A stretch of DNA of 64,000 nt from an uncultured Gemmatimonadaceae bacterium (GCA_963790305.1 CAWBOC010000009.1:128001-192000), one strand, 5' to 3'. Numbered from the stretch's first letter, positions 364-43,154 are shown. Notes: generated by a model from the sequence alone, not told the origin. A program made the numbers and translations.

Positions 364-441
364 GGTCGAGGTCGTCGAGGATGTCGAGGTCATCGAGGTG
401 AAGTCGCCTCGATCACCTGGACGACCTCGACGACCTCGACC
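364..441. repeat. Inverted 9-nt tandem-repeat hairpin (GTCGAGGTC x4 / GACCTCGAC x4)
   Basis: gtcgaggtc gtcgaggat gtcgaggtc atcgaggtg ... cacctggac gacctcgac gacctcgac; intergenic. Confidence 0.85.
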
Positions 442-452
442 GCCTCTGCACT

Positions 453-1310: not shown

Positions 1311-1402
1311 AAGGCGCTAGAGGCGCTAGAGGCGCTAAAGGCGCCAAAGGCGCTGAACGCCGACCCAGCGCCTCTAGCGCCTCTAGCGCCCTTAGCGCCC
1401 TT
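1311..1402. repeat. Inverted 9-nt tandem-repeat hairpin (AGGCGCTAG x5 / CTAGCGCCT x4)
   Basis: Directly visible between divergent genes; same unit family as 24935-25020. Confidence 0.85.
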
Positions 1403-1442
1403 CCCGCCCTTCACTATCTTTCCCCGACCCTCAACCCGACCC

Positions 1443-24934: not shown

Positions 24935-25020
24935 AAGGCGCTGAGAGCGCTAGGGGCGCCAAGGGCGCTAAGGGCATAGCGGTTCAGCGCCCCTAGCGCC
25001 CTTAGCGCCCCTAGCGCCCT
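24935..25020. repeat. Inverted 9-nt tandem-repeat hairpin (GGGCGCTAG / CTAGCGCCC)
   Basis: Fills the trxA-rsmI spacer; same family as 1311-1402. Confidence 0.85.
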
Positions 25021-30615: not shown

Positions 30616-30686
30616 TGCCCCCTCGTCCAATGGCAGGACATCGGACTTTGGATCCGAGAATGGTGGTTCGAATCCACCGGGGGCAA
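30616..30686 (+). tRNA. tRNA-Gln (anticodon TTG)
   Basis: TGCCCCC/GGGGGCA acceptor, TCGGA-CTTTGGA-TCCGA anticodon arm; canonical ispE-tRNA-Gln-prs order. Confidence 0.96.
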
Positions 30687-30688
30687 TT

Positions 30689-30808
30689 GGGGGTCAGGAG
30701 TCAGGGGTCAGGGATCAGGGGGTGTCAGGGTGAAGGTTCGAGGAGAACGGCGCGTGCAATTCCTGAAACCTCTCCCCTGACACCCCTGACCCCTGACTCC
30801 TGACCCCC
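30689..30808. repeat. About 120-bp heptamer-armed element (copy 1; copy 2 at 59019-59140)
   Basis: GGGGTCA/GGAGTCA arms in inverted orientation; core GTGTCAGGGTGAAGGTTCGAGG...ATTCCTGAAACC shared with copy 2. Confidence 0.88.
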
Positions 30809-31818: not shown

Positions 31819-31922
31819 AACGGCACAGATGTCAGATGTCAGAATACAGAGCTCAGAAATCAGAATGCGGCGGGCGGGCGATGTCTGACATCTGATTCCT
31901 GTATTCTGACCTCTGACATCTT
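31819..31922. repeat. Heptamer (AGAnnTC) inverted element; gene-less counterpart of the four-helix-bundle cassette
   Basis: Five AGAnnTC-like units, a spacer, then five inverted units; both ends match the cassette ends (30/32 and 18/18). Confidence 0.88.
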
Positions 31923-31958
31923 GAAGTTCACGAATACTTCCTTTGGAGATCCTGTAGC

Positions 31959-32618
31959 ATGGCAACCGCAACCCTGAACGCCACCCCGCGAACCGACGTC
32001 GGCAAGGGCGCCGCCCGCAAGCTCCGCGCGAGCCTTCGCATCCCCGGCGTCGTTTACGGCCATCACCGCGAGGCCACCCCGCTCGCGATTGACGGGCGCG
32101 AGCTCGAGAAGCTGCTCGGCTCGATCGCTCCCGGCACGACCGTCGTCGAGCTCCACCTCGGCGGGCGCATGTCGAAGACGCTCATCCGCGAGATCCAGCG
32201 TCACCCGTACAAGCGTCAGGTGCTGCACATCGACTTCCAGGAGCTCGTTGCCGGTGAGAAGATCACCGTGAACGTTCCGATTCTGCTCGTTGGCACCGCC
32301 GCGGGCGTGAAGGACGGCGGCACGGTCGAGGAAGTCATGCGCGAGGTGTCGATCGAGGTCGATCCCGCCAACATTCCCAACCACTTCGAGATCGACATCT
32401 CGGCGCTCGGGATCAACGACTCGGTGCACGTGAGCGACATCAAGGTGCCCGAGGGCGTCGAGCTCCTCGAGGACCTGGAGGCGACGGTCGCCGTCGTCGC
32501 TCCGCCGCGGGTTGAGGAGGAGCCGCCCGCACCCGTCGAGGGCGCCGTGGAAGCGGCCCCCGAGCCGGAGCTCATCCGCAAGACGAAGGATGAGGAAGAA
32601 GGCGGCGAGGGCGAGTAG
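31959..32618 (+). CDS. rplY: 50S ribosomal protein L25/Ctc
   Basis: GKGAARKLR, IPGVVYG, QRHP..LHIDF, acidic tail. Confidence 0.96.
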   Translation: MATATLNATPRTDVGKGAARKLRASLRIPGVVYGHHREATPLAIDGRELEKLLGSIAPGTTVVELHLGGRMSKTLIREIQRHPYKRQVLHIDFQELVAGEKITVNVPILLVGTAAGVKDGGTVEEVMREVSIEVDPANIPNHFEIDISALGINDSVHVSDIKVPEGVELLEDLEATVAVVAPPRVEEEPPAPVEGAVEAAPEPELIRKTKDEEEGGEGE

Positions 32619-32635
32619 CGCTTCTTGTCAGGCGC

Positions 32636-33220
32636 TTGAAGGTGATCGTGGGCCTGGGCAATCCGGGCCGAGAGTACGAGCTCACGCGGCACAACGTCGG
32701 CTGGATGGTCGTCGACCATCTGGCCGACGTTTGGCATTTCGACGGCTGGCGACGTGACGGCGACTCGCTGGTCGCCGCCGGACGCGCGGTTGGCTGTGCC
32801 GTGCGACTCGTGAAGCCGCAGACCTTCATGAATCTGAGTGGAGGCGCACTGCGGCCGTATCTCCGCCGTCCCATGTTCGATCCCCCGAAGGACCTCCTCG
32901 TCATCGTCGACGACGTCGCGCTCCCCCTCGGCCGCCTGCGCCTGCGGCCCGAGGGAAGTGCGGGCGGGCACAACGGCCTCAAGAGCATCGAGGGGGCGCT
33001 ATCATCACGCACGTACGCGAGAGCACGTGTCGGTGTGGCACCTCTCGATCCACGACGGCGCGGGCCGGACCTCGCCGACTTCGTGCTGTCCCCGTTCGCG
33101 AAGGATGAGCGCGTCGAGATGCTCGCCCAAATGTCGCGCTACACGAGCGCCGTAGAGACCTGGCTCACTGATGGTATCGAGCGCGCAATGAGCCTCTACA
33201 ACCGGGAGCCACCCGAGTAA
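32636..33220 (+). CDS. pth: Peptidyl-tRNA hydrolase
   Basis: [32 protein letters not shown] start. Confidence 0.97.
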
Positions 33221-35265
33221 TGCTGACCAACGTTGCGTTCTTCGCCTGGTGGGCCGGAGCGATCGGCATGGCGCTCGCGCTCGCGCTGTATCTGTGGATT
33301 CGTCGGCAGCCGCAGGGGAATGACGTGATGCGTGGCATTGCCGAGCAGATCCACACCGGGGCCATGGCGTTTCTGCGACGTGAGTACATGGTCGTCGTTC
33401 CCTTTCTGCTCGTGGTGGGCGCGCTGCTCTACCGCGCCGTGGGCGAGCGCACCGGCTACGCCTACGTCGCCGGGGGTCTGTGCTCGATCATCGCCGGCCT
33501 TGCCGGGATGAAGGCGGCCACGCGCGCCAACGTCCGTACCAGCGAGGCCGCGCGCGGGACCGGTCAGGCCCGCGCGCTCCGCATCGCGTTCGACGGTGGC
33601 GCGGTCATGGGCCTCAGCGTCGCCAGCCTCGGCTTGTTAGGCATTGGCGTCATCTTCAGCTGGCTCGTGCCCGGAATCGTCACCAACGATCAGTGGCGCG
33701 AATTCTCGGAGACGATCGCCGGGTTCGCGATGGGCGCGAGCTCGGTCGCGCTCTTTGCGCGCGTCGGGGGCGGGATTTACACGAAGGCGGCGGACGTCGG
33801 CGCGGATCTGGTGGGGAAGGTCGAGGAGGGCATCCCCGAGGACGACCCGCGCAATCCGGCGACGATCGCCGACAACGTCGGCGACAACGTCGGTGACGTC
33901 GCGGGCATGGGCGCCGACATCTTCGAGAGCTACGTGGGGGCGGTGATCGCGACGATCGCCATAGCCGCCACCATGCCGACGATCACGAACAACTTCAACG
34001 CGGTCTCGCTGCCAATCGCCTACTCGATGGCGGGGCTCGTGGCGTCGATTGCCGGCATCGGACTCATGCGCGTGCTCGCGCGCGGCAATCCGGCGAACGC
34101 GCTGCGAATGACCACCTTCGCGGCGGCGGGACTCTTTCTCGTGTTCGCGTTCGGCCTCACGCTGCTCCTGCCCATCGGACAGACGCGCGGTGACGGCTCC
34201 GCCTTCCCTGTCACCGGGCCATTCTGGGCCGTCGTCGCAGGGACGCTGGCCGGCATCCTGATCGGGCTCGTCACCGAGTTCTACACGGCCGGCCCCCCGG
34301 TCCGCCGCATCGCGGCATCCTCGACCACTGGTGCGGCGACGAACATCATCGCCGGCCTGGCGGTGGGAATGCAGAGCGCGGTCATCCCGATTCTCCTCAT
34401 CGCTCTGGCGACGTACTCGTCGTTTGCCGCCGCGGGACTCTATGGCATTGCCATCGCCGCCGTCGGCATGCTGGCCACCGTGGGGGTGACGATGTCGGTC
34501 GATGCCTACGGCCCGATCGCCGACAACGCGGGTGGCATCACGCAGATGGCGCACCTCGGCCCCGACGTCCGCCGCATCACCGATGGACTCGACGCGTTAG
34601 GCAACACGACCGCCGCCATCGGCAAGGGCTTCGCGATCGGAAGCGCCGCCCTGACCGCGCTCGCGCTCTTCAGCGCCTATGCGACGGCCGTGGGACTGGG
34701 CGATCGCGGCCTCGACCTGCTCAATCCGATGGTCGTCATCGGTCTCTTCATGGGCGGCGTGATGCCGTTCTTCATCGGGGCGACGACGATGACGGCGGTC
34801 GGCCGCGCGGCGCAGGGAATGGTCGCGGAAGTTCGGCGTCAGTTCCGCGAGATCCCGGGCCTTCGCGAGGGAACCGCAAAGCCCGACTCGGCACGGTGCG
34901 TCGACATTTCGACGCGTGCGGCGCTTCGGGAGATGATCCTCCCCGGCATGAGCGCCGTGGTCGTTCCGGTGATCGTGGGTCGGTTCATCGGAATCGAGGC
35001 GCTCGGCGGCCTGCTCGCCGGCGCCACGGTAACCGGGGTGGTGCTCGCGCTGTTCATGGCGAATGCGGGCGGAGCGTGGGACAACGCGAAGAAGTACATC
35101 GAGGCGGGGGCGTACGGGGGCAAAGGCGGTGAGCCCCACAAGGCAGCGGTGGTCGGCGATACGGTCGGGGATCCGTTCAAGGATACGGCAGGGCCGAGTC
35201 TCAACATTCTCATCAAGTTGATGAGCGTGGTGAGTTTGGTGCTGGCCCCGTGGTTCATTTCGTGA
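33220..35265 (+). CDS. hppA: Membrane-bound ion-translocating pyrophosphatase, K+-dependent, probably Na+-pumping
   Basis: [42 protein letters not shown]. Confidence 0.96.
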
Positions 35266-35270
35266 GACAG

Positions 35271-35788
35271 AAGATGTCAGAGGTCAGACGTCAGATTTCA
35301 GAATTCAGAGGGCGCCAGTGGAGACTTGCTGTCGTTTCTCGCGTGAATGGCTTTGAGCAGACCGGTCAGCATGCGTTTGACCTCGCGAGTGTTCCGATCG
35401 TAGGGTGGCGTAGCGGTCACCCGACAGGTAACCGAGATCGCGTGACAGCAATAGGTGATACTCGAGTTCAATCGCAGACCCGAGCGCTATCTTGATGAAG
35501 CGCGCTAGTTCAGCCTGCGATGCGCGTCCGCATCCCTCGACAATGTTCGCGCTGACGGACACGGCAGCGCGCCTTGCCTGCGTGGCAAGACCCTTATCGC
35601 GACGGAGCGCGCTCGACGACTCTCGGTAGACCTGAAGCGTGAGGGCGTGCGCCTTCCTCCACACGAGCAAGCGCTGAAAGTCGATCATGCTCGATGAGAG
35701 CAGTTGCGCTTCCATCGGACGACGCAGACATCCTGGTGCACTCTGAAATCTGACATTCTGTATTCTGACGTCTGACATCTTTGCCGTT
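35271..35788 (-). mobile_element. Putative heptamer-repeat-bounded cassette carrying a four-helix-bundle gene
   Basis: Inverted arrays of AGAnnTC (35271-35310 and 35741-35781) bracket one antisense gene inside a conserved operon. Mobility is inferred; no transposase is present. Confidence 0.55.
35298..35688 (-). CDS. Four-helix-bundle protein (23S rRNA-IVP / Avd-like family); one extra base near 35393
   Basis: DFQRLLVWRKA, QARRAAVSVSANIVEGCGR, RFIKIALGSAIELEYHL; the typical EVKRMLTGL helix is restored by removing one base (129 aa). Confidence 0.9.
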
Positions 35789-35802
35789 CACAACGAACCC
35801 AA

Positions 35803-36903
35803 ATGCTGAAGCTCGGAATCGTCGGCCTCCCCAACGTCGGAAAATCCACGCTGTTCAACGCTCTAACGGCGGCCGCCGCCCCCGCGGAGAACTACCCGTT
35901 CTGCACCGTCGACCCCAACGTCGGCATCGTCGAGGTCCCCGACCCCCGCCTCGGCAAGCTCGCCGAGATCGTCAAGCCGAACCGCACCGTCCCGGCCGTC
36001 GTGCAGTTCGTCGACATTGCAGGACTCGTAAAGGGCGCGGCGCAGGGGGAGGGGCTCGGCAACAAGTTCCTCGCGAACATCCGGGAGACGGACGCCATCG
36101 TGCACGTGGTGCGGTGCTTCGAGGACCCCGATGTGCTGCACGTCATGGGCTCCGTGGACCCGGTGCGCGACCGCGAAGTCATCGAGTTCGAGTTGGCGCT
36201 CGCCGACCTCGCATCGGTCGAGAAGCGGCTCGATCGCGTGCAGCGTGCGGCGCGGGCCGCGGAAAAGGAAGCCCTCACCGAGCTGCCGGTGATCGAGCGC
36301 GCCCACAAGCTCCTTTCCGAGGGGCGCGGGCTGTGGGAGGCGCGCCTGACGAGCGAGGAGCTTGCGCTGCTCGCGCCGCTAGGGCTGTTGACGGTGAAGC
36401 CGGTGCTGTACGCGGCCAACGTCGGCGATGCCGAGCTCGCCGGCGACGAAGGGCCGCACCTCCGCGCGCTGCGCGAGGCCGTGGCGCGCAGCGGGGAGCA
36501 CGCCGAGGTCGTTCCCTTCTCCGCGAAGATCGAAGCCGAGCTGCGTCAGCTGCCGCCCGAGGACCGCGCCGACTTTCTCGCGTCGTTAGGGCTGGAGGAG
36601 GCCGGTCTCGACCGCGTCATCCACGCCGGCTACCACCTCCTCGGTCTGCAGACGTATTTCACCGCCGGCGAGCAGGAAGTGCGCGCGTGGACGATCCATC
36701 GCGGTGACACGGCGCCCCGCGCGGCCGGCGTGATCCATACCGATTTCGAGCGAGGGTTCATCCGCGCGGAGACGGCGGGCTACGACGACTTCGTGTCTAC
36801 CGGAGGCTGGAAGGGGGCAAAGGAGCGCGGAATCGTGCGGTCCGAGGGAAAGGAGTACGTCGTCCGCGACGGCGACGTGATGCTCTTCCGCTTCAACGTC
36901 TAG
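35803..36903 (+). CDS. ychF: Ribosome-binding ATPase YchF
   Basis: GLPNVGKST, NYPFCT, DIAGLV, GEGLGNKFL, IHTDFERGFIRAE. Confidence 0.98.
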   Translation: MLKLGIVGLPNVGKSTLFNALTAAAAPAENYPFCTVDPNVGIVEVPDPRLGKLAEIVKPNRTVPAVVQFVDIAGLVKGAAQGEGLGNKFLANIRETDAIVHVVRCFEDPDVLHVMGSVDPVRDREVIEFELALADLASVEKRLDRVQRAARAAEKEALTELPVIERAHKLLSEGRGLWEARLTSEELALLAPLGLLTVKPVLYAANVGDAELAGDEGPHLRALREAVARSGEHAEVVPFSAKIEAELRQLPPEDRADFLASLGLEEAGLDRVIHAGYHLLGLQTYFTAGEQEVRAWTIHRGDTAPRAAGVIHTDFERGFIRAETAGYDDFVSTGGWKGAKERGIVRSEGKEYVVRDGDVMLFRFNV

Positions 36904-37607: not shown

Positions 37608-38657
37608 ATGGCCGACGGCCTTGCGCCGGCGCCGCGCGAGCGAGGGTGGGCGCGTCTCGCCTTTGCTCTCGCGGCGTTCTTGTTGGTCCCACTCTTCCCG
37701 GCCGTGCGCGCGGTGCTCCCGGTGGAGCACACGCTCATACTGCTCGTTCCCACCATCGCCGTCTGCTTCCTCCTCGGCTGGTGGGCCGGCGGACGGTTGT
37801 CGCTGGCGCTGGTGTGGCTGGCGTTCGCAGCGTGGGTGCTCGCGCCAGGATCCCCCGACGGTCGGTGGCTCGTACTACGATCTGGCTCGGGCGTGGGGGC
37901 TGCTCCTCGCCGGGGCGTTCGGTGTGACGTGCATCCTCGGCAAACCAGGGCCCTTCTTCACGCGCGTGCTCTCGGCGATCGGCCTGGCGCTGCTCGTTGG
38001 GCTCGCTCATGGGTTGGCGGGGCGCACGTCGTTTCGTCGTGTCGAACGCGTGCTCGATGAGCAATACGAAGTACGCAATCGCCAATCGGTGGAGGCGCTC
38101 GGCATATCGCTGCGCAGCGTGGCCGACCGCGTGCCATCGATGCGTGACGTCATGACGAGCGAGACAGTGGATCAAACCGCCTTCGAGCTCAACCGCTTGT
38201 CGGAGGGCGCCTCGCCGTTGTTCCCTGCCCTGCTCGCGCTCGAGTCGCTCGTCGTGTGCGCGCTGGCGTGGACGTTGTATCACCGCCTCGTCGCGCGCCC
38301 GTATCGGCCCGCCGCTGGCGGCGCTGCGGGAGTTTCGCTTTCACGACCACCTGGCCTGGGGCCTGATCGTCGGGCTCACCCTCGTGCTGCTGCCGGCGTT
38401 CGGCTCACTCGCAAGGCTCGGACAGAACCTGGTATTGTTCTTTGGTATGTTGTACGCGTTGCGCGGTCTTGGCGTGCTCGACAGCTTCGTTCGACGCAGT
38501 GCCGCGCTCGTGGCGATCGCCGCGGTGATCGCGATCCTCAATCCTCGTCCCTACGCTGCCCTCGCTGGCGCTCGCCGTGATGCTGGCGCTGTTCGCCGTG
38601 CTGGGTGTGAGCGATGCGTGGGGAGACTGGCGGCGACGCCTGCGCGCCGCATCCTGA
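37608..38657 (+). CDS. YybS/DUF2232-like membrane protein (about three frameshifts)
   Basis: Hydrophobic segments across frames; LREFRFHDHLAWG, YALRGLGV and LGVSDAWGDWR tail; typical rpsR-rplI position. Confidence 0.7.
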
Positions 38658-38689
38658 CCTCGTTCCACTGCACTACCGGAGCCCTTCTC

Positions 38690-39133
38690 ATGGAAATCAT
38701 TCTTCGCCAATCGGTCGAGAACCTCGGCAAGCCCGGTGACATCGTGAAGGTGTCGCCCGGGTACGCCCGCAACTACCTCCTTCCCCGCGGTCTCGCGTAC
38801 GAGGCGACGCCCGGCAACCGCAAGCGCATCGCGATGGAAAAGGCGCGGCTCGAGGCGGCCGAGGCGGAGCGCATCAAGGCGGCGCAGTCGCTCGCCGAGC
38901 GCCTGGAGAGCGTGCAGCTCACCTTCTCGGCCCGCGTCGGCGACGAGGAGAAGCTGTTCGGCTCGGTGACGACGGCCGACATCGCCCAGCAGCTCGAGGC
39001 ACAGGGCTTCGACATCGAGAAGCGGCAGATCGACCTGCACGAGCCGATCAAGTCGCTCGGCGTCTACAAGATCCCGGTGCGCCTGCACGCCGAGGTGAAG
39101 CCCGAGATCAAGGTGTGGGTGATCAAGCAGTAG
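38690..39133 (+). CDS. rplI: 50S ribosomal protein L9
   Basis: MEIIL..LGKPGDIV.V.PGYARNYLLP, KLFGSVT. Confidence 0.97.
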   Translation: MEIILRQSVENLGKPGDIVKVSPGYARNYLLPRGLAYEATPGNRKRIAMEKARLEAAEAERIKAAQSLAERLESVQLTFSARVGDEEKLFGSVTTADIAQQLEAQGFDIEKRQIDLHEPIKSLGVYKIPVRLHAEVKPEIKVWVIKQ

Positions 39134-39231
39134 GTGCGTCGAGGTGCTCGAGGTAGGTCGAGGTGGCTCGAGGTGACGACCGGTCGTCACCTTCGAGCAC
39201 CTCGAGCACCTCGAGCACCTCGAGCACCTCG
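39132..39231. repeat. Inverted 9-nt tandem-repeat hairpin (GAGGTGCTC / GAGCACCTC x4)
   Basis: Begins inside the rplI stop codon; centred on the perfect palindrome AGGTGACGACCGGTCGTCACCT (39171-39192). Confidence 0.88.
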
Positions 39232-39335
39232 GGCATTGGCATACCCAATGCCGCGTCCATACCGGAACAAAGACCTGTCGCCGACGGTACCACCGCCGAC
39301 GCAGTGCGTTCATCAGATTCCTGAACGGTCTCCGA

Positions 39336-42974: not shown

Positions 42975-42978
42975 CCTA

Positions 42979-43119
42979 GGGGTCAGGAGTCAGGAGTCAG
43001 GGGTCAGGGGTGGAAAGGCGCGGCAGCTCCGCTGCCGCGCTCATTATGAAGGGGCCGCTCGCGCGTAGCGCGGCGGCCCCCTTTCCACCCCTGACCCCTG
43101 ACTCCTGACTCCTGATCCC
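42979..43119. repeat. Heptamer-armed 40-bp inverted repeat enclosing two GC hairpins
   Basis: 42979-43018 pairs with 43080-43119 (one G-U); inner hairpins at 43018-43040 and 43051-43080. Confidence 0.88.
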
Positions 43120-43154
43120 TTTGATGCCCACGGTACCATCGCTATTTTCCGCGC

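Follow-up and report, generated by a model that had tools for sequence, protein, structure and literature searches.

An IVP gene within inverted heptamer arrays at the hppA-ychF locus

The window analysed here is a 64-kb stretch of the genome of an uncultured Gemmatimonadaceae bacterium (GCA_963790305.1, CAWBOC010000009.1:128001-192000). In the spacer between hppA, which encodes an H+-pyrophosphatase, and ychF it carries a gene for a four-helix-bundle protein of the IVP family (intervening sequence proteins of 23S rRNA), antisense to both neighbours and enclosed by inverted arrays of the 7-base unit TCAGANN. A second element with the same arms and no gene lies between prs and rplY. Both belong to a population of roughly 300 hairpins, divided among at least six unit families, in this genome (G000; 4.31 Mb, 65.9% G+C, 94%-complete), located in gaps just after genes. 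Coordinates without prefix are positions in the 64-kb window, and those with a C prefix refer to contigs of G000. The two elements comprise the following features:

31819..31922, no strand: gene-less TCAGANN hairpin between prs (stop 31816) and rplY (start 31959); arms 31825-31864 and 31884-31921; outer tail AACGGCA
35271..35311, no strand: cassette arm on the hppA side; TCAGANN x 5.7, period 7; 6 nt past the hppA stop (35265); 3' arm relative to the IVP gene
35298..35688, minus strand: IVP gene, PF05635/TIGR02436 four-helix-bundle, Avd-like; ATG at 35688 (MIDF...); frameshifted near 35391
35737..35788, no strand: cassette arm on the ychF side; NNTCTGA units and family terminus TCTTTGCCGTT; 15 nt before the ychF start (35803)

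The window contains eight matches to three phased TCAGANN units, compared to 0.01 expected in shuffles. The arms of the gene-less hairpin form an inverted pair of 38 nt with 84% complementarity and a folding energy of −54.6 kcal/mol (z −6.3 against shuffles), and the cassette arms pair with each other, with the entire gene between them (z −5.4). An initial annotation had described AGAnnTC heptamer arrays at the ends of both elements and long hairpins formed by each; the arrays are real and identical to the TCAGANN phasing, and the z values bear out the folding. The terminal matches were likewise recovered: 31819-31850 matches 35757-35788 in reverse complement (94%, 32 nt), and 31905-31922 is the exact reverse complement of 35271-35288 (18/18). 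The special pairing of the cassette with this one hairpin did not hold, as the cassette arm fits C9:783696-783746 (94%) and C9:780810-780854 (93%) equally. Similarly, the non-repeat tail thought to be shared by the two elements is present (GGCAAAGA / TCTTTGCC) but is the terminus of a family found at many loci. TCAGANN arrays occur at 38 places in G000, 32 of them with a complementary partner within 700 nt and 30 as short hairpins, and the copies have a common outer terminus, GGCAAAGA[CT]G...C[GA]TCTTTGCC, so that the similarity of the ends extends beyond the repeat unit. The proposal of a cargo element and its derivative resembling a miniature inverted-repeat transposable element (MITE) was thus right in joining gene-carrying and gene-less elements, but there is no two-member pair, TCAGANN having about 30 hairpins. 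Derivation of the gene-less copies by deletion from the present cassette was considered and rejected, since their loops differ from the inner ends of the cassette; deletion nonetheless occurs, as a 318-nt copy of the cassette in the related genome G003 demonstrates. The three conditions that the initial annotation had named as refuting its reading all turned out in its favour: relatives have the gene at this locus together with repeats, flanks of this kind accompany other IVP genes, and the ends resemble each other beyond the unit.

The gene itself had been annotated as a single antisense gene at 35298-35688. The open reading frame (ORF) scores 96.3 bits against PF05635 (cut-off 33.8) and 91.1 bits against TIGR02436 (cut-off 24), but it is not intact and the interval joins two frames. 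Compared to six orthologues there is a one-base frameshift near 35391, after which the last helix (EVKRMLTGLLKAI) is in the frame that ends at 35298. This frameshift may be an assembly error.

PF05635 genes are framed by inverted arrays of their own unit

Six PF05635 genes are present in the genome of the window, and all six lie between inverted arrays, each with a unit of its own: AGTGGGG, GGAGTCA/GTCAGGG, TCAGANN, CGGAATG, and the 9-mers GGCGCTAGA and GAGGTCGTC. The same six units are those of the six large hairpin families, and in the loaded copies of G000 the IVP gene is the sole content. This architecture extends to the genus, for which we used nine genomes (G000 to G008, G000 included), all of them draft assemblies with contigs broken by repeats. 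All PF05635 genes of the nine genomes were examined, and 52 of 55 are flanked by inverted arms with a period of 7, 8 or 9; the three exceptions lie 19-140 nt from a contig end with one flank missing. None of 1000 random positions in G000 reached the arm score of 18 that was tested (99th percentile 13.5).

Beyond the genus, a scan across phyla with one genome per species returned 80 PF05635 loci, 68 of which had enough flank. Arms above the 99% level of a mismatched-locus null, which is inflated because loci share units, were found at 35 of these 68 (period 7 in 25, 8 in 4, 9 in 3, unclear in 3). The loci include Chloroflexi, Acidobacteria, Planctomycetes, Bacteroidota, groups of the candidate phyla radiation (CPR), cyanobacteria and one archaeon. 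In the 42 loci whose heptamer arms are clear, similarity of the unit could be predicted from protein identity (rho −0.20, permutation p <= 0.0005): a unit distance of at most 1 was seen in 20% of pairs with more than 60% identity, in 3-8% of pairs in the bins between 30 and 60%, and in 0/16 pairs below 30%.

Hairpin families and copying of their loops

Period-7 arrays were collected with Tandem Repeats Finder at three or more copies and paired as hairpins if the loop was at most 130 nt. Hairpin and array counts vary with the thresholds chosen. G000 contains 579 such arrays, 463 of which are accounted for by four unit families. The strict count of period-7 hairpins is 81 for GAATGCG, 65 for GTCAGGG, 9 for GAGTGGG and 8 for TCAGAAT, and TCAGANN is the smallest of several families in this genome. 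The period-9 arrays form 148 inverted pairs, with 52 for GGCGCTAAA, 49 for GAGGTCGTC, 23 for GAGGTGCTC and 24 for others. Arm length amounts to 4.7 units in most GTCAGGG copies, about 3.3 units in GAATGCG, and 9 units in the 9-mer family of G003.

Copies of the GTCAGGG family resemble each other over their whole length. In 28 pairs the identity is at least 90%, loops included, between sites with unrelated flanks, and in the six best pairs the loops alone are 83-94% identical. The loops of GAATGCG vary widely in length and sequence. This is of importance for a purely local origin, in which arrays would arise by polymerase slippage and the palindromes grow in place, with no copying between sites. 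The variable GAATGCG loops would fit such an origin, as would the over-representation of heptamer repeats in bacteria, for which slippage is proposed in the portion of PMC4692102 drawn on here. Yet distant loci share conserved termini and loops, the arm length is uniform in most GTCAGGG copies, and genomes differ in the presence or absence of entire families. The shared loops largely refute local origin, which we consider very improbable.

The flanks of 58 GTCAGGG copies were inspected for target duplications. TA adjoins the left end in 30/58 and the right end in 23/58, the right ends being imperfectly located, and the same dinucleotide is found on both sides in 14/58.

Several loops have contents of their own. 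In a GTCAGGG sub-family comprising the hairpin at 42978-43120 and about 20 others, the loop measures 80-90 nt and contains two inner stem-loops; pairing in their stems is preserved, and the stem sequences differ by copy (GCAGCTTCGCTGC, GCAGCAACGCTGC, GCGGCGAAGCCGC). This loop looks like a conserved three-way structure. GAATGCG/GATTGCG loops at C2:103370, C5:99082, C5:102844 and C8:54019 share a module, GTAAGACC...GGGCTCCG...CGGAGCCC...GGTCTTAC, under two arm types. At C7:121230-121576 a GCGGATG-like hairpin is nested in a TCAGAAT-armed loop, and at C7:189542-189910 GAATGCG arms surround a 72-codon non-IVP ORF with no tblastn match; neither has an IVP remnant. The latter ORF may represent cargo of another kind, or else a small gene of the host that came to lie between two half elements. 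Hairpin loops seem to accept insertions.

Co-occurrence of hairpin families and IVP paralogues in the genus

Pattern hits on both strands (forward plus reverse) were counted in the nine genomes, with up to three mismatches allowed for CAGGGTGCT:

GGCCAR: G000 0, G001 199, G002 144, G003 1, G004 3, G005 184, G006 220, G007 108, G008 0
GAATGCG: G000 256, G001 90, G002 3, G003 10, G004 2, G005 7, G006 117, G007 4, G008 1
GTCAGGR: G000 324, G001 150, G002 126, G003 1, G004 309, G005 209, G006 311, G007 22, G008 490
CAGGGTGCT (<=3 mismatches): G000 24, G001 0, G002 24, G003 363, G004 100, G005 76, G006 0, G007 23, G008 30
TCAGANN: G000 99, G001 211, G002 120, G003 80, G004 233, G005 161, G006 189, G007 82, G008 142

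GGCCAR is abundant (108-220 hits) in exactly the five genomes that have an IVP gene with GGGCCAR arms, and has 0-3 hits in the other four. A cognate IVP gene of GAATGCG was found in G000 and G006 and not in G001; that of GTCAGGR only in G000, G004, G005, G006 and G008. The unit CAGGGTGCT forms the arms of the sole intact IVP gene of G003, and its variant CAGGGTCCT has IVP genes of its own in G004, G005 and G008. Taking the four families together and calling a family abundant at 50 or more hits, abundance was observed in 15/16 IVP-positive cells versus 3/20 IVP-negative cells, with a Fisher p of 4e-6 that is to be read with a cut-off chosen after seeing the data and with kin that are not independent. 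As the four families have different sets of genomes, several gains or losses are involved. TCAGANN was lowest in the two near-complete genomes in which its cognate gene is broken (80 hits in G003, 99 in G000), compared to 120-233 in the others and 82 in G007 at 71% completeness. That a broken cognate gene goes with fewer TCAGANN copies is suggestive only.

Site histories and placement of the hairpins

The cassette between hppA and ychF is found with its repeats in all nine genomes at a length of 496-573 nt, except that in G003 the gene is internally deleted and arms plus 318 nt remain. Orthologues of the window gene are intact in G001, G002, G004, G005, G007 and G008 (118-136 aa). Pairwise comparison with our own Nei-Gojobori script yielded ratios of nonsynonymous to synonymous substitution (dN/dS) of 0.07-0.18 at a dS of 0.5 to >2, which is near saturation. 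The low dN/dS at high dS therefore indicates that selection has retained the protein at a single site from the origin of the genus onward. Genomes of other genera have hairpins of the GGGACGA and GGTAAGA heptamers in the hppA-ychF spacer.

The prs-rplY hairpin is full in 7/8 congeners with the spacer assembled, and a 69-nt remnant is left in G003. In ten genomes of other genera this spacer measures 7-130 nt and showed no TCAGANN arrays; one of the ten, G015, is marked as unpublished, and no conclusion depends on that genome alone. Both the cassette arms and the arms of the prs-rplY hairpin have changed to the GACGTCAGG type in G002 and G007, so that the arms follow lineage.

A third site lies ahead of prs, next to a tRNA gene at 30616-30686 between ispE and prs, the only Rfam match in the window (63.6 bits):

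30689..30808, no strand: gene-less hairpin with GTCAGGG units, 3 nt after the tRNA gene (30616-30686), ahead of the prs promoter region

The site is empty in G003 (GGGGGCAAT|GAATTGACC), and in the other eight genomes a hairpin directly follows the tRNA, of the GTCAGGG family in four genomes and of GGGCCAR in two, with a 9-mer and an 8-mer family in one genome each. This single comparison of empty and filled sites is compatible with an AT duplication, although not a clean one. The 3' end of the tRNA is thus the insertion point of a variable hairpin, and a conserved TTGAC, to judge from its sequence and position probably the −35 box of prs, lies just beyond the element. The hairpin of G001 has an enlarged loop. 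Loss of genes in G003, together with the empty, shrunken and deleted copies of that genome, fits a role of the protein in copying and a role in shielding palindromes alike.

A stop codon of a long ORF with high G+C at third codon positions is located within −6 to +15 nt of the outer end in 114/163 hairpins, 39 of them on both sides, compared to 162/3000 random intervals. The commonest distance is −2, where (C)TAGGGG, the terminus of the GTCAGGG family, supplies the stop of the gene with its TAG, and 39/70 stops adjoining this family are TAG. TA at the termini, with the first G rebuilding TAG, could explain the overlap. Only 14/163 hairpins lie in divergent spacers, which by crude gene calls make up 22% of spacers.

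These observations bear on the possibility that the elements act at the RNA level, with hairpins in transcripts, right behind genes, being cut by RNase III, protecting 3' ends or terminating transcription, the cassette being an intervening sequence (IVS) of rRNA that landed in an mRNA spacer, the IVP protein an RNA-binding factor for these stems, and the spread following an unrelated route. Proximity to stop codons, scarcity in divergent spacers and strong folding all argue for it, as do two precedents taken from parts of the respective sources: in IVSs with an ORF, RNase III cuts a terminal stem of 28 bp (PMC4990558), and Avd binds RNA stem-loops (bioRxiv 10.1101/2023.10.23.563531). The closeness to stop codons is, however, also expected from insertion into very short spacers: with spacers of only 7-29 nt in relatives, tolerated insertions must fall beside a stop codon. 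Furthermore, G.U mismatches on the sense strand do not exceed A.C mismatches (78 vs 98, p = 0.15), so that no RNA-level signature was detected, and loop orientation shows no clear bias with respect to gene direction (16:9 and 3:7). The window cassette is antisense to both neighbours, G003 lives with no hairpin at tRNA-prs and with the remnant at prs-rplY, and a scan of 35200-35900 for promoter and terminator consensus gave 0 sites and no G+C-rich stem followed by a T run. Rfam searches of the hairpins returned no family match, only sub-threshold look-alikes of miRNA precursors, which we take as generic hairpin matches. Among public sequencing runs, none of RNA was listed as containing this DNA, and DNA runs contained small shares of it. 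The RNA-processing role advanced in the initial annotation thus found no support in mismatch pattern or orientation, and an RNA-level element seems unlikely to us.

The IVP protein

The intact paralogue at C5:70644-71036 was used for structure prediction. The model consists of four helices (pLDDT, the predicted local distance difference test, 94.1) and matches PDB 2GSC with template-modelling (TM) scores of 0.85/0.94 and 2RLD with 0.75/0.90, followed by Avd (4DWL, 0.86) and Avd in the ribonucleoprotein of a diversity-generating retroelement (DGR). The predicted fold and the match to PHROG 3206, 'Avd protein of DGR' (E 2e-10), are in agreement with the relation to Avd named in the initial annotation. 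The Pfam family bAvd (PF22296) scored 22.5 and 21.3 bits, below its cut-off of 40. PF05635 scores of two IVP paralogues were 115.8 and 118.9 bits, and three aligned paralogues share 33-34% mutual identity.

An alignment of 37 sequences across phyla, from which two loci with in-frame stops were left out, shows seven invariant residues, Q39, R42, S46, N50, E53, G54 and E76 in the numbering of the C5 paralogue. Most of them lie within or beside helix two (H36-55), and E76 belongs to the third helix. Such a conserved polar site suggests that these residues may contact a ligand or nucleic acid rather than serve packing alone. PDB entries 2GSC and 2RLD each contain five chains, and the Xanthomonas campestris S23p protein is a homopentamer according to the part of PMC4990558 consulted. 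A scheme with one unit per protomer of the pentamer was considered; a fixed count of five is unsupported, as arms range from about 3.3 to 9 units.

Three further IVP genes of G000, at C7:228030, C9:787754 and C10:203511, look frameshifted or truncated, with partial profile matches (1-79, 26-102 and 31-103) and two overlapping ORFs each. PADLOC gave no match to a defence family. Searches of the 94%-complete G000 for reverse transcriptase (RVT_1), for the Y1 transposase of the RAYT type (PF01797; control search positive in 6/14 reference genomes) and for DDE_3 transposases returned no match, the transposase search being confined to Y1 and DDE_3. The absence of a transposase stated in the initial annotation thus extends, for these families, from the window to the genome.

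The searches are relevant to a second alternative, in which the hairpins are MITE-like and moved by an enzyme acting in trans, and the IVP gene is a cargo lodged in loops that are hot spots of insertion, a loaded copy being an ordinary member of its family. This is consistent with the nested hairpin at C7:121230-121576 and the non-IVP ORF at C7:189542-189910, with TA on the left of 30 of the 58 GTCAGGG copies, as in TA-duplicating MITEs, and with the existence of some families of G000 that have no IVP gene. A mere passenger would not, on the other hand, be expected in arms in all 52 assessable cases of the genus, nor to come as a separate paralogue for each family and under purifying selection. 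No gene for a Y1 transposase, a DDE_3 transposase or a reverse transcriptase was found in G000, and capture of cargo would not account for the recurrence of a single fold as cargo in different phyla. We therefore regard passenger status as improbable.

A putative partnership between IVP proteins and hairpins

Taken together, the findings point to an undescribed, transposase-free, self-propagating DNA element. The reading that we favour, with a probability of about one half and on comparative sequence data, is a partnership resembling that of REPIN and RAYT, in which the IVP protein would recognise its own arrays and be needed for the hairpins to spread or persist. Each unit family of 7, 8 or 9 bases has its own PF05635 gene in the loop of one copy, and the four-helix-bundle protein would recognise the repeat arrays flanking its gene, as DNA or as RNA. 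By this recognition, gene-less hairpins with matching arms would be copied or protected from loss. The copy with the gene is inherited vertically at a fixed site, and the gene-less copies would spread as whole units of arms plus loop into what few bases are tolerated right behind stop codons or tRNA ends, and then turn over. What the data show is the architecture, the rule of one gene to a family, the co-occurrence between genomes, purifying selection on the protein, sites that are empty or filled, and loops that were copied; array binding by the protein and its part in spread or persistence are inferred. Because the IVP fold is one without known catalytic activity, the enzyme that cuts and joins would have to be a host factor.

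Several observations weigh against this partnership. All of the evidence is comparative. Cognate IVP genes were not found for GTCAGGR in G001 (150 hits) and G002 (126) nor for GAATGCG in G001 (90), in assemblies of 330 and 190 contigs. Hairpins persist where the cognate gene is broken, and four of the six IVP genes of G000 look frameshifted (that of the window and those at L004, L005 and L006), with two intact. GAATGCG, the largest family with 81 copies, has a degraded gene, so that copy number does not track an intact gene. Families with no IVP gene in G000 include ACGCAGAGG (about 13 hairpins), CGCGGATTC (about 8, with loops of 86-99 nt) and CTGCGAA/G; IVP genes with CTGCGAA/CTGCGTA arms are present in G004, G005 and G008. 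There are no identical copies with unrelated flanks among the GTCAGGG pairs, and thus no sign of recent activity. Arm similarity within genomes compared to that between orthologues reflects lineage structure (G002 and G007 versus the rest), with no clean diagonal. Finally, the correlation between protein and unit across phyla is weak, and common descent of whole cassettes could explain it.

A wider version of the partnership can be put forward tentatively, and we hold it to be possible rather than probable. PF05635 proteins in general may be rings that bind repeats in a sequence-specific manner and sustain transposase-free replicators, with an own hairpin population in each lineage. Bacterial heptamer repeats, such as the cyanobacterial short tandemly repeated repetitive (STRR) sequences and GGGAATC of Xanthomonas, would then be such populations, ORF-bearing rRNA IVSs would be the same cassettes landed in rRNA, and the Avd of DGRs would represent a branch that a reverse transcriptase has recruited.

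Relation to known elements

In the REPIN-RAYT systems associated with the names of Bertels and Rainey and of Nunvar, doublets of REP sequences are reportedly accompanied by a single-copy Y1 transposase. The elements described here share with them a single-copy, vertically inherited gene between inverted copies of a dispersed hairpin repeat, a repeat family for each paralogue, and co-occurrence of gene and repeats. They differ in that the protein is a four-helix bundle and not an HUH-type Y1 transposase, and in arms built of tandem units instead of one palindrome. The Correia/NEMIS elements are bacterial MITEs with TA duplication. Their length of about 100-150 bp, terminal inverted repeats, hairpin formation, intergenic location and lack of an internal transposase are all reminiscent of the hairpins reported here, as is TA at the ends of the GTCAGGG family, whereas phased-repeat arms and a cognate non-transposase gene per family are particular to the latter. 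Of the features that define MITEs, terminal inverted repeats are present and a transposase-encoding parent was not found in the searches for Y1, DDE_3 and reverse transcriptase.

To our knowledge PF05635, a very widespread family with two crystal structures, has no known function, and we know of no cause given for the over-representation of heptamers in bacteria, although it has been noted for decades. ORF-bearing rRNA IVSs have been a curiosity since the 1990s. The genus studied here ties these three subjects together and provides a natural experiment in which hairpin families appear and vanish with their own gene paralogue.

In PMC4990558, the ORF-bearing IVSs of Coxiella burnetii and Leptospira, with their S23p ORF, are considered a selfish element of unknown function. 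They resemble the cassette in having the same protein family in the loop of an element with complementary, stem-forming termini. In contrast, the cassette is in the intergenic hppA-ychF spacer and not in rRNA, and phased arms of 7- to 9-base units and dozens of scattered gene-less copies per family set it apart from the IVSs as described there. Neither the consulted part of that paper nor that of a preprint on CPR rRNA, in which the S23p-type protein is still called uncharacterised, mentions heptamers or gene-less copies. The two 23S genes of G000 contain no period-7 arrays and no heptamer-armed IVS.

Published heptamer repeats include GGGAATC of Xanthomonas (70-75 inverted pairs), GGGGAYT of Nostoc, the STRR of Calothrix and TAACTGA of Beggiatoaceae (PMC4692102, PMC4679880, each in part). 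Like the arrays of the window they are intergenic 7-base arrays, often convergent inverted pairs, and vary between close relatives. G-quadruplex or translational roles are proposed for them, and neither paper mentions the IVP family, the terms 'S23', 'intervening sequence' and 'helix bundle' being absent from both; here each array family is tied to a gene. The S23p structure 2GSC is from X. campestris, and so the link between IVP proteins and heptamers is testable in Xanthomonas.

Avd of DGRs is described, in the part of bioRxiv 10.1101/2023.10.23.563531 used here, as a pentamer with positive charge, 'similar to S23 ribosomal proteins', and 'Avd-binding stem-loops' are attributed to the RNA of the DGR. 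The likeness to the IVP paralogues thus comprises the fold, sequence kinship, and a pentameric basic barrel that binds structured RNA beside its own gene. Unlike a DGR, the elements of G000 have no reverse transcriptase in the genome, a bAvd score below cut-off, and no template or variable repeat. In a CRISPR-discovery paper, '23S rRNA IVP' is listed among array-linked proteins. No paper joining PF05635, IVP, S23p or Avd-like proteins with heptamer repeats was found in full texts outside supplements and subscription journals, and within that range the system appears undescribed, as had been presumed.

If the protein does read one 7-base unit per subunit, it would represent a new modular scheme of nucleic-acid recognition; should a population of repeats be sustained by a protein that is not an enzyme, this would represent a new kind of intragenomic replicator beside REPIN-RAYT. 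With a 13-kDa protein and arrays of 35 nt, the question is within reach of ordinary tools.

Further hairpins of the window and the 23S genes

About 11 hairpins lie within the window. In addition to those described above, the following were located:

365..446, no strand: gene-less 9-base hairpin GTCGAGGTC / CCTCGACGA; shares its unit with IVP cassette C7:227884-228422
1311..1411, no strand: gene-less 9-base hairpin AAGGCGCTA / AGCGCCTCT; shares its unit with IVP cassette C9:787677-788215
24937..25020, no strand: gene-less 9-base hairpin GGCGCTAAG / AGCGCCCCT
39132..39235, no strand: gene-less hairpin of the 9-base family GAGGTGCTC / CACCTCGAG; starts where ORF 38384-39133, which precedes it, has its stop codon
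42978..43120, no strand: gene-less GTCAGGG hairpin of the sub-family with two inner stem-loops in the loop
59022..59137, no strand: short inverted arrays GTCAGGA / GACTCCT; a probable further hairpin of the GTCAGG family

Finally, the two 23S genes of G000, C9:615825-618869 and C6:138470-141485, are unusually divergent, with 95.8% identity and 51 gap positions, which could be real heterogeneity or a binning artefact.

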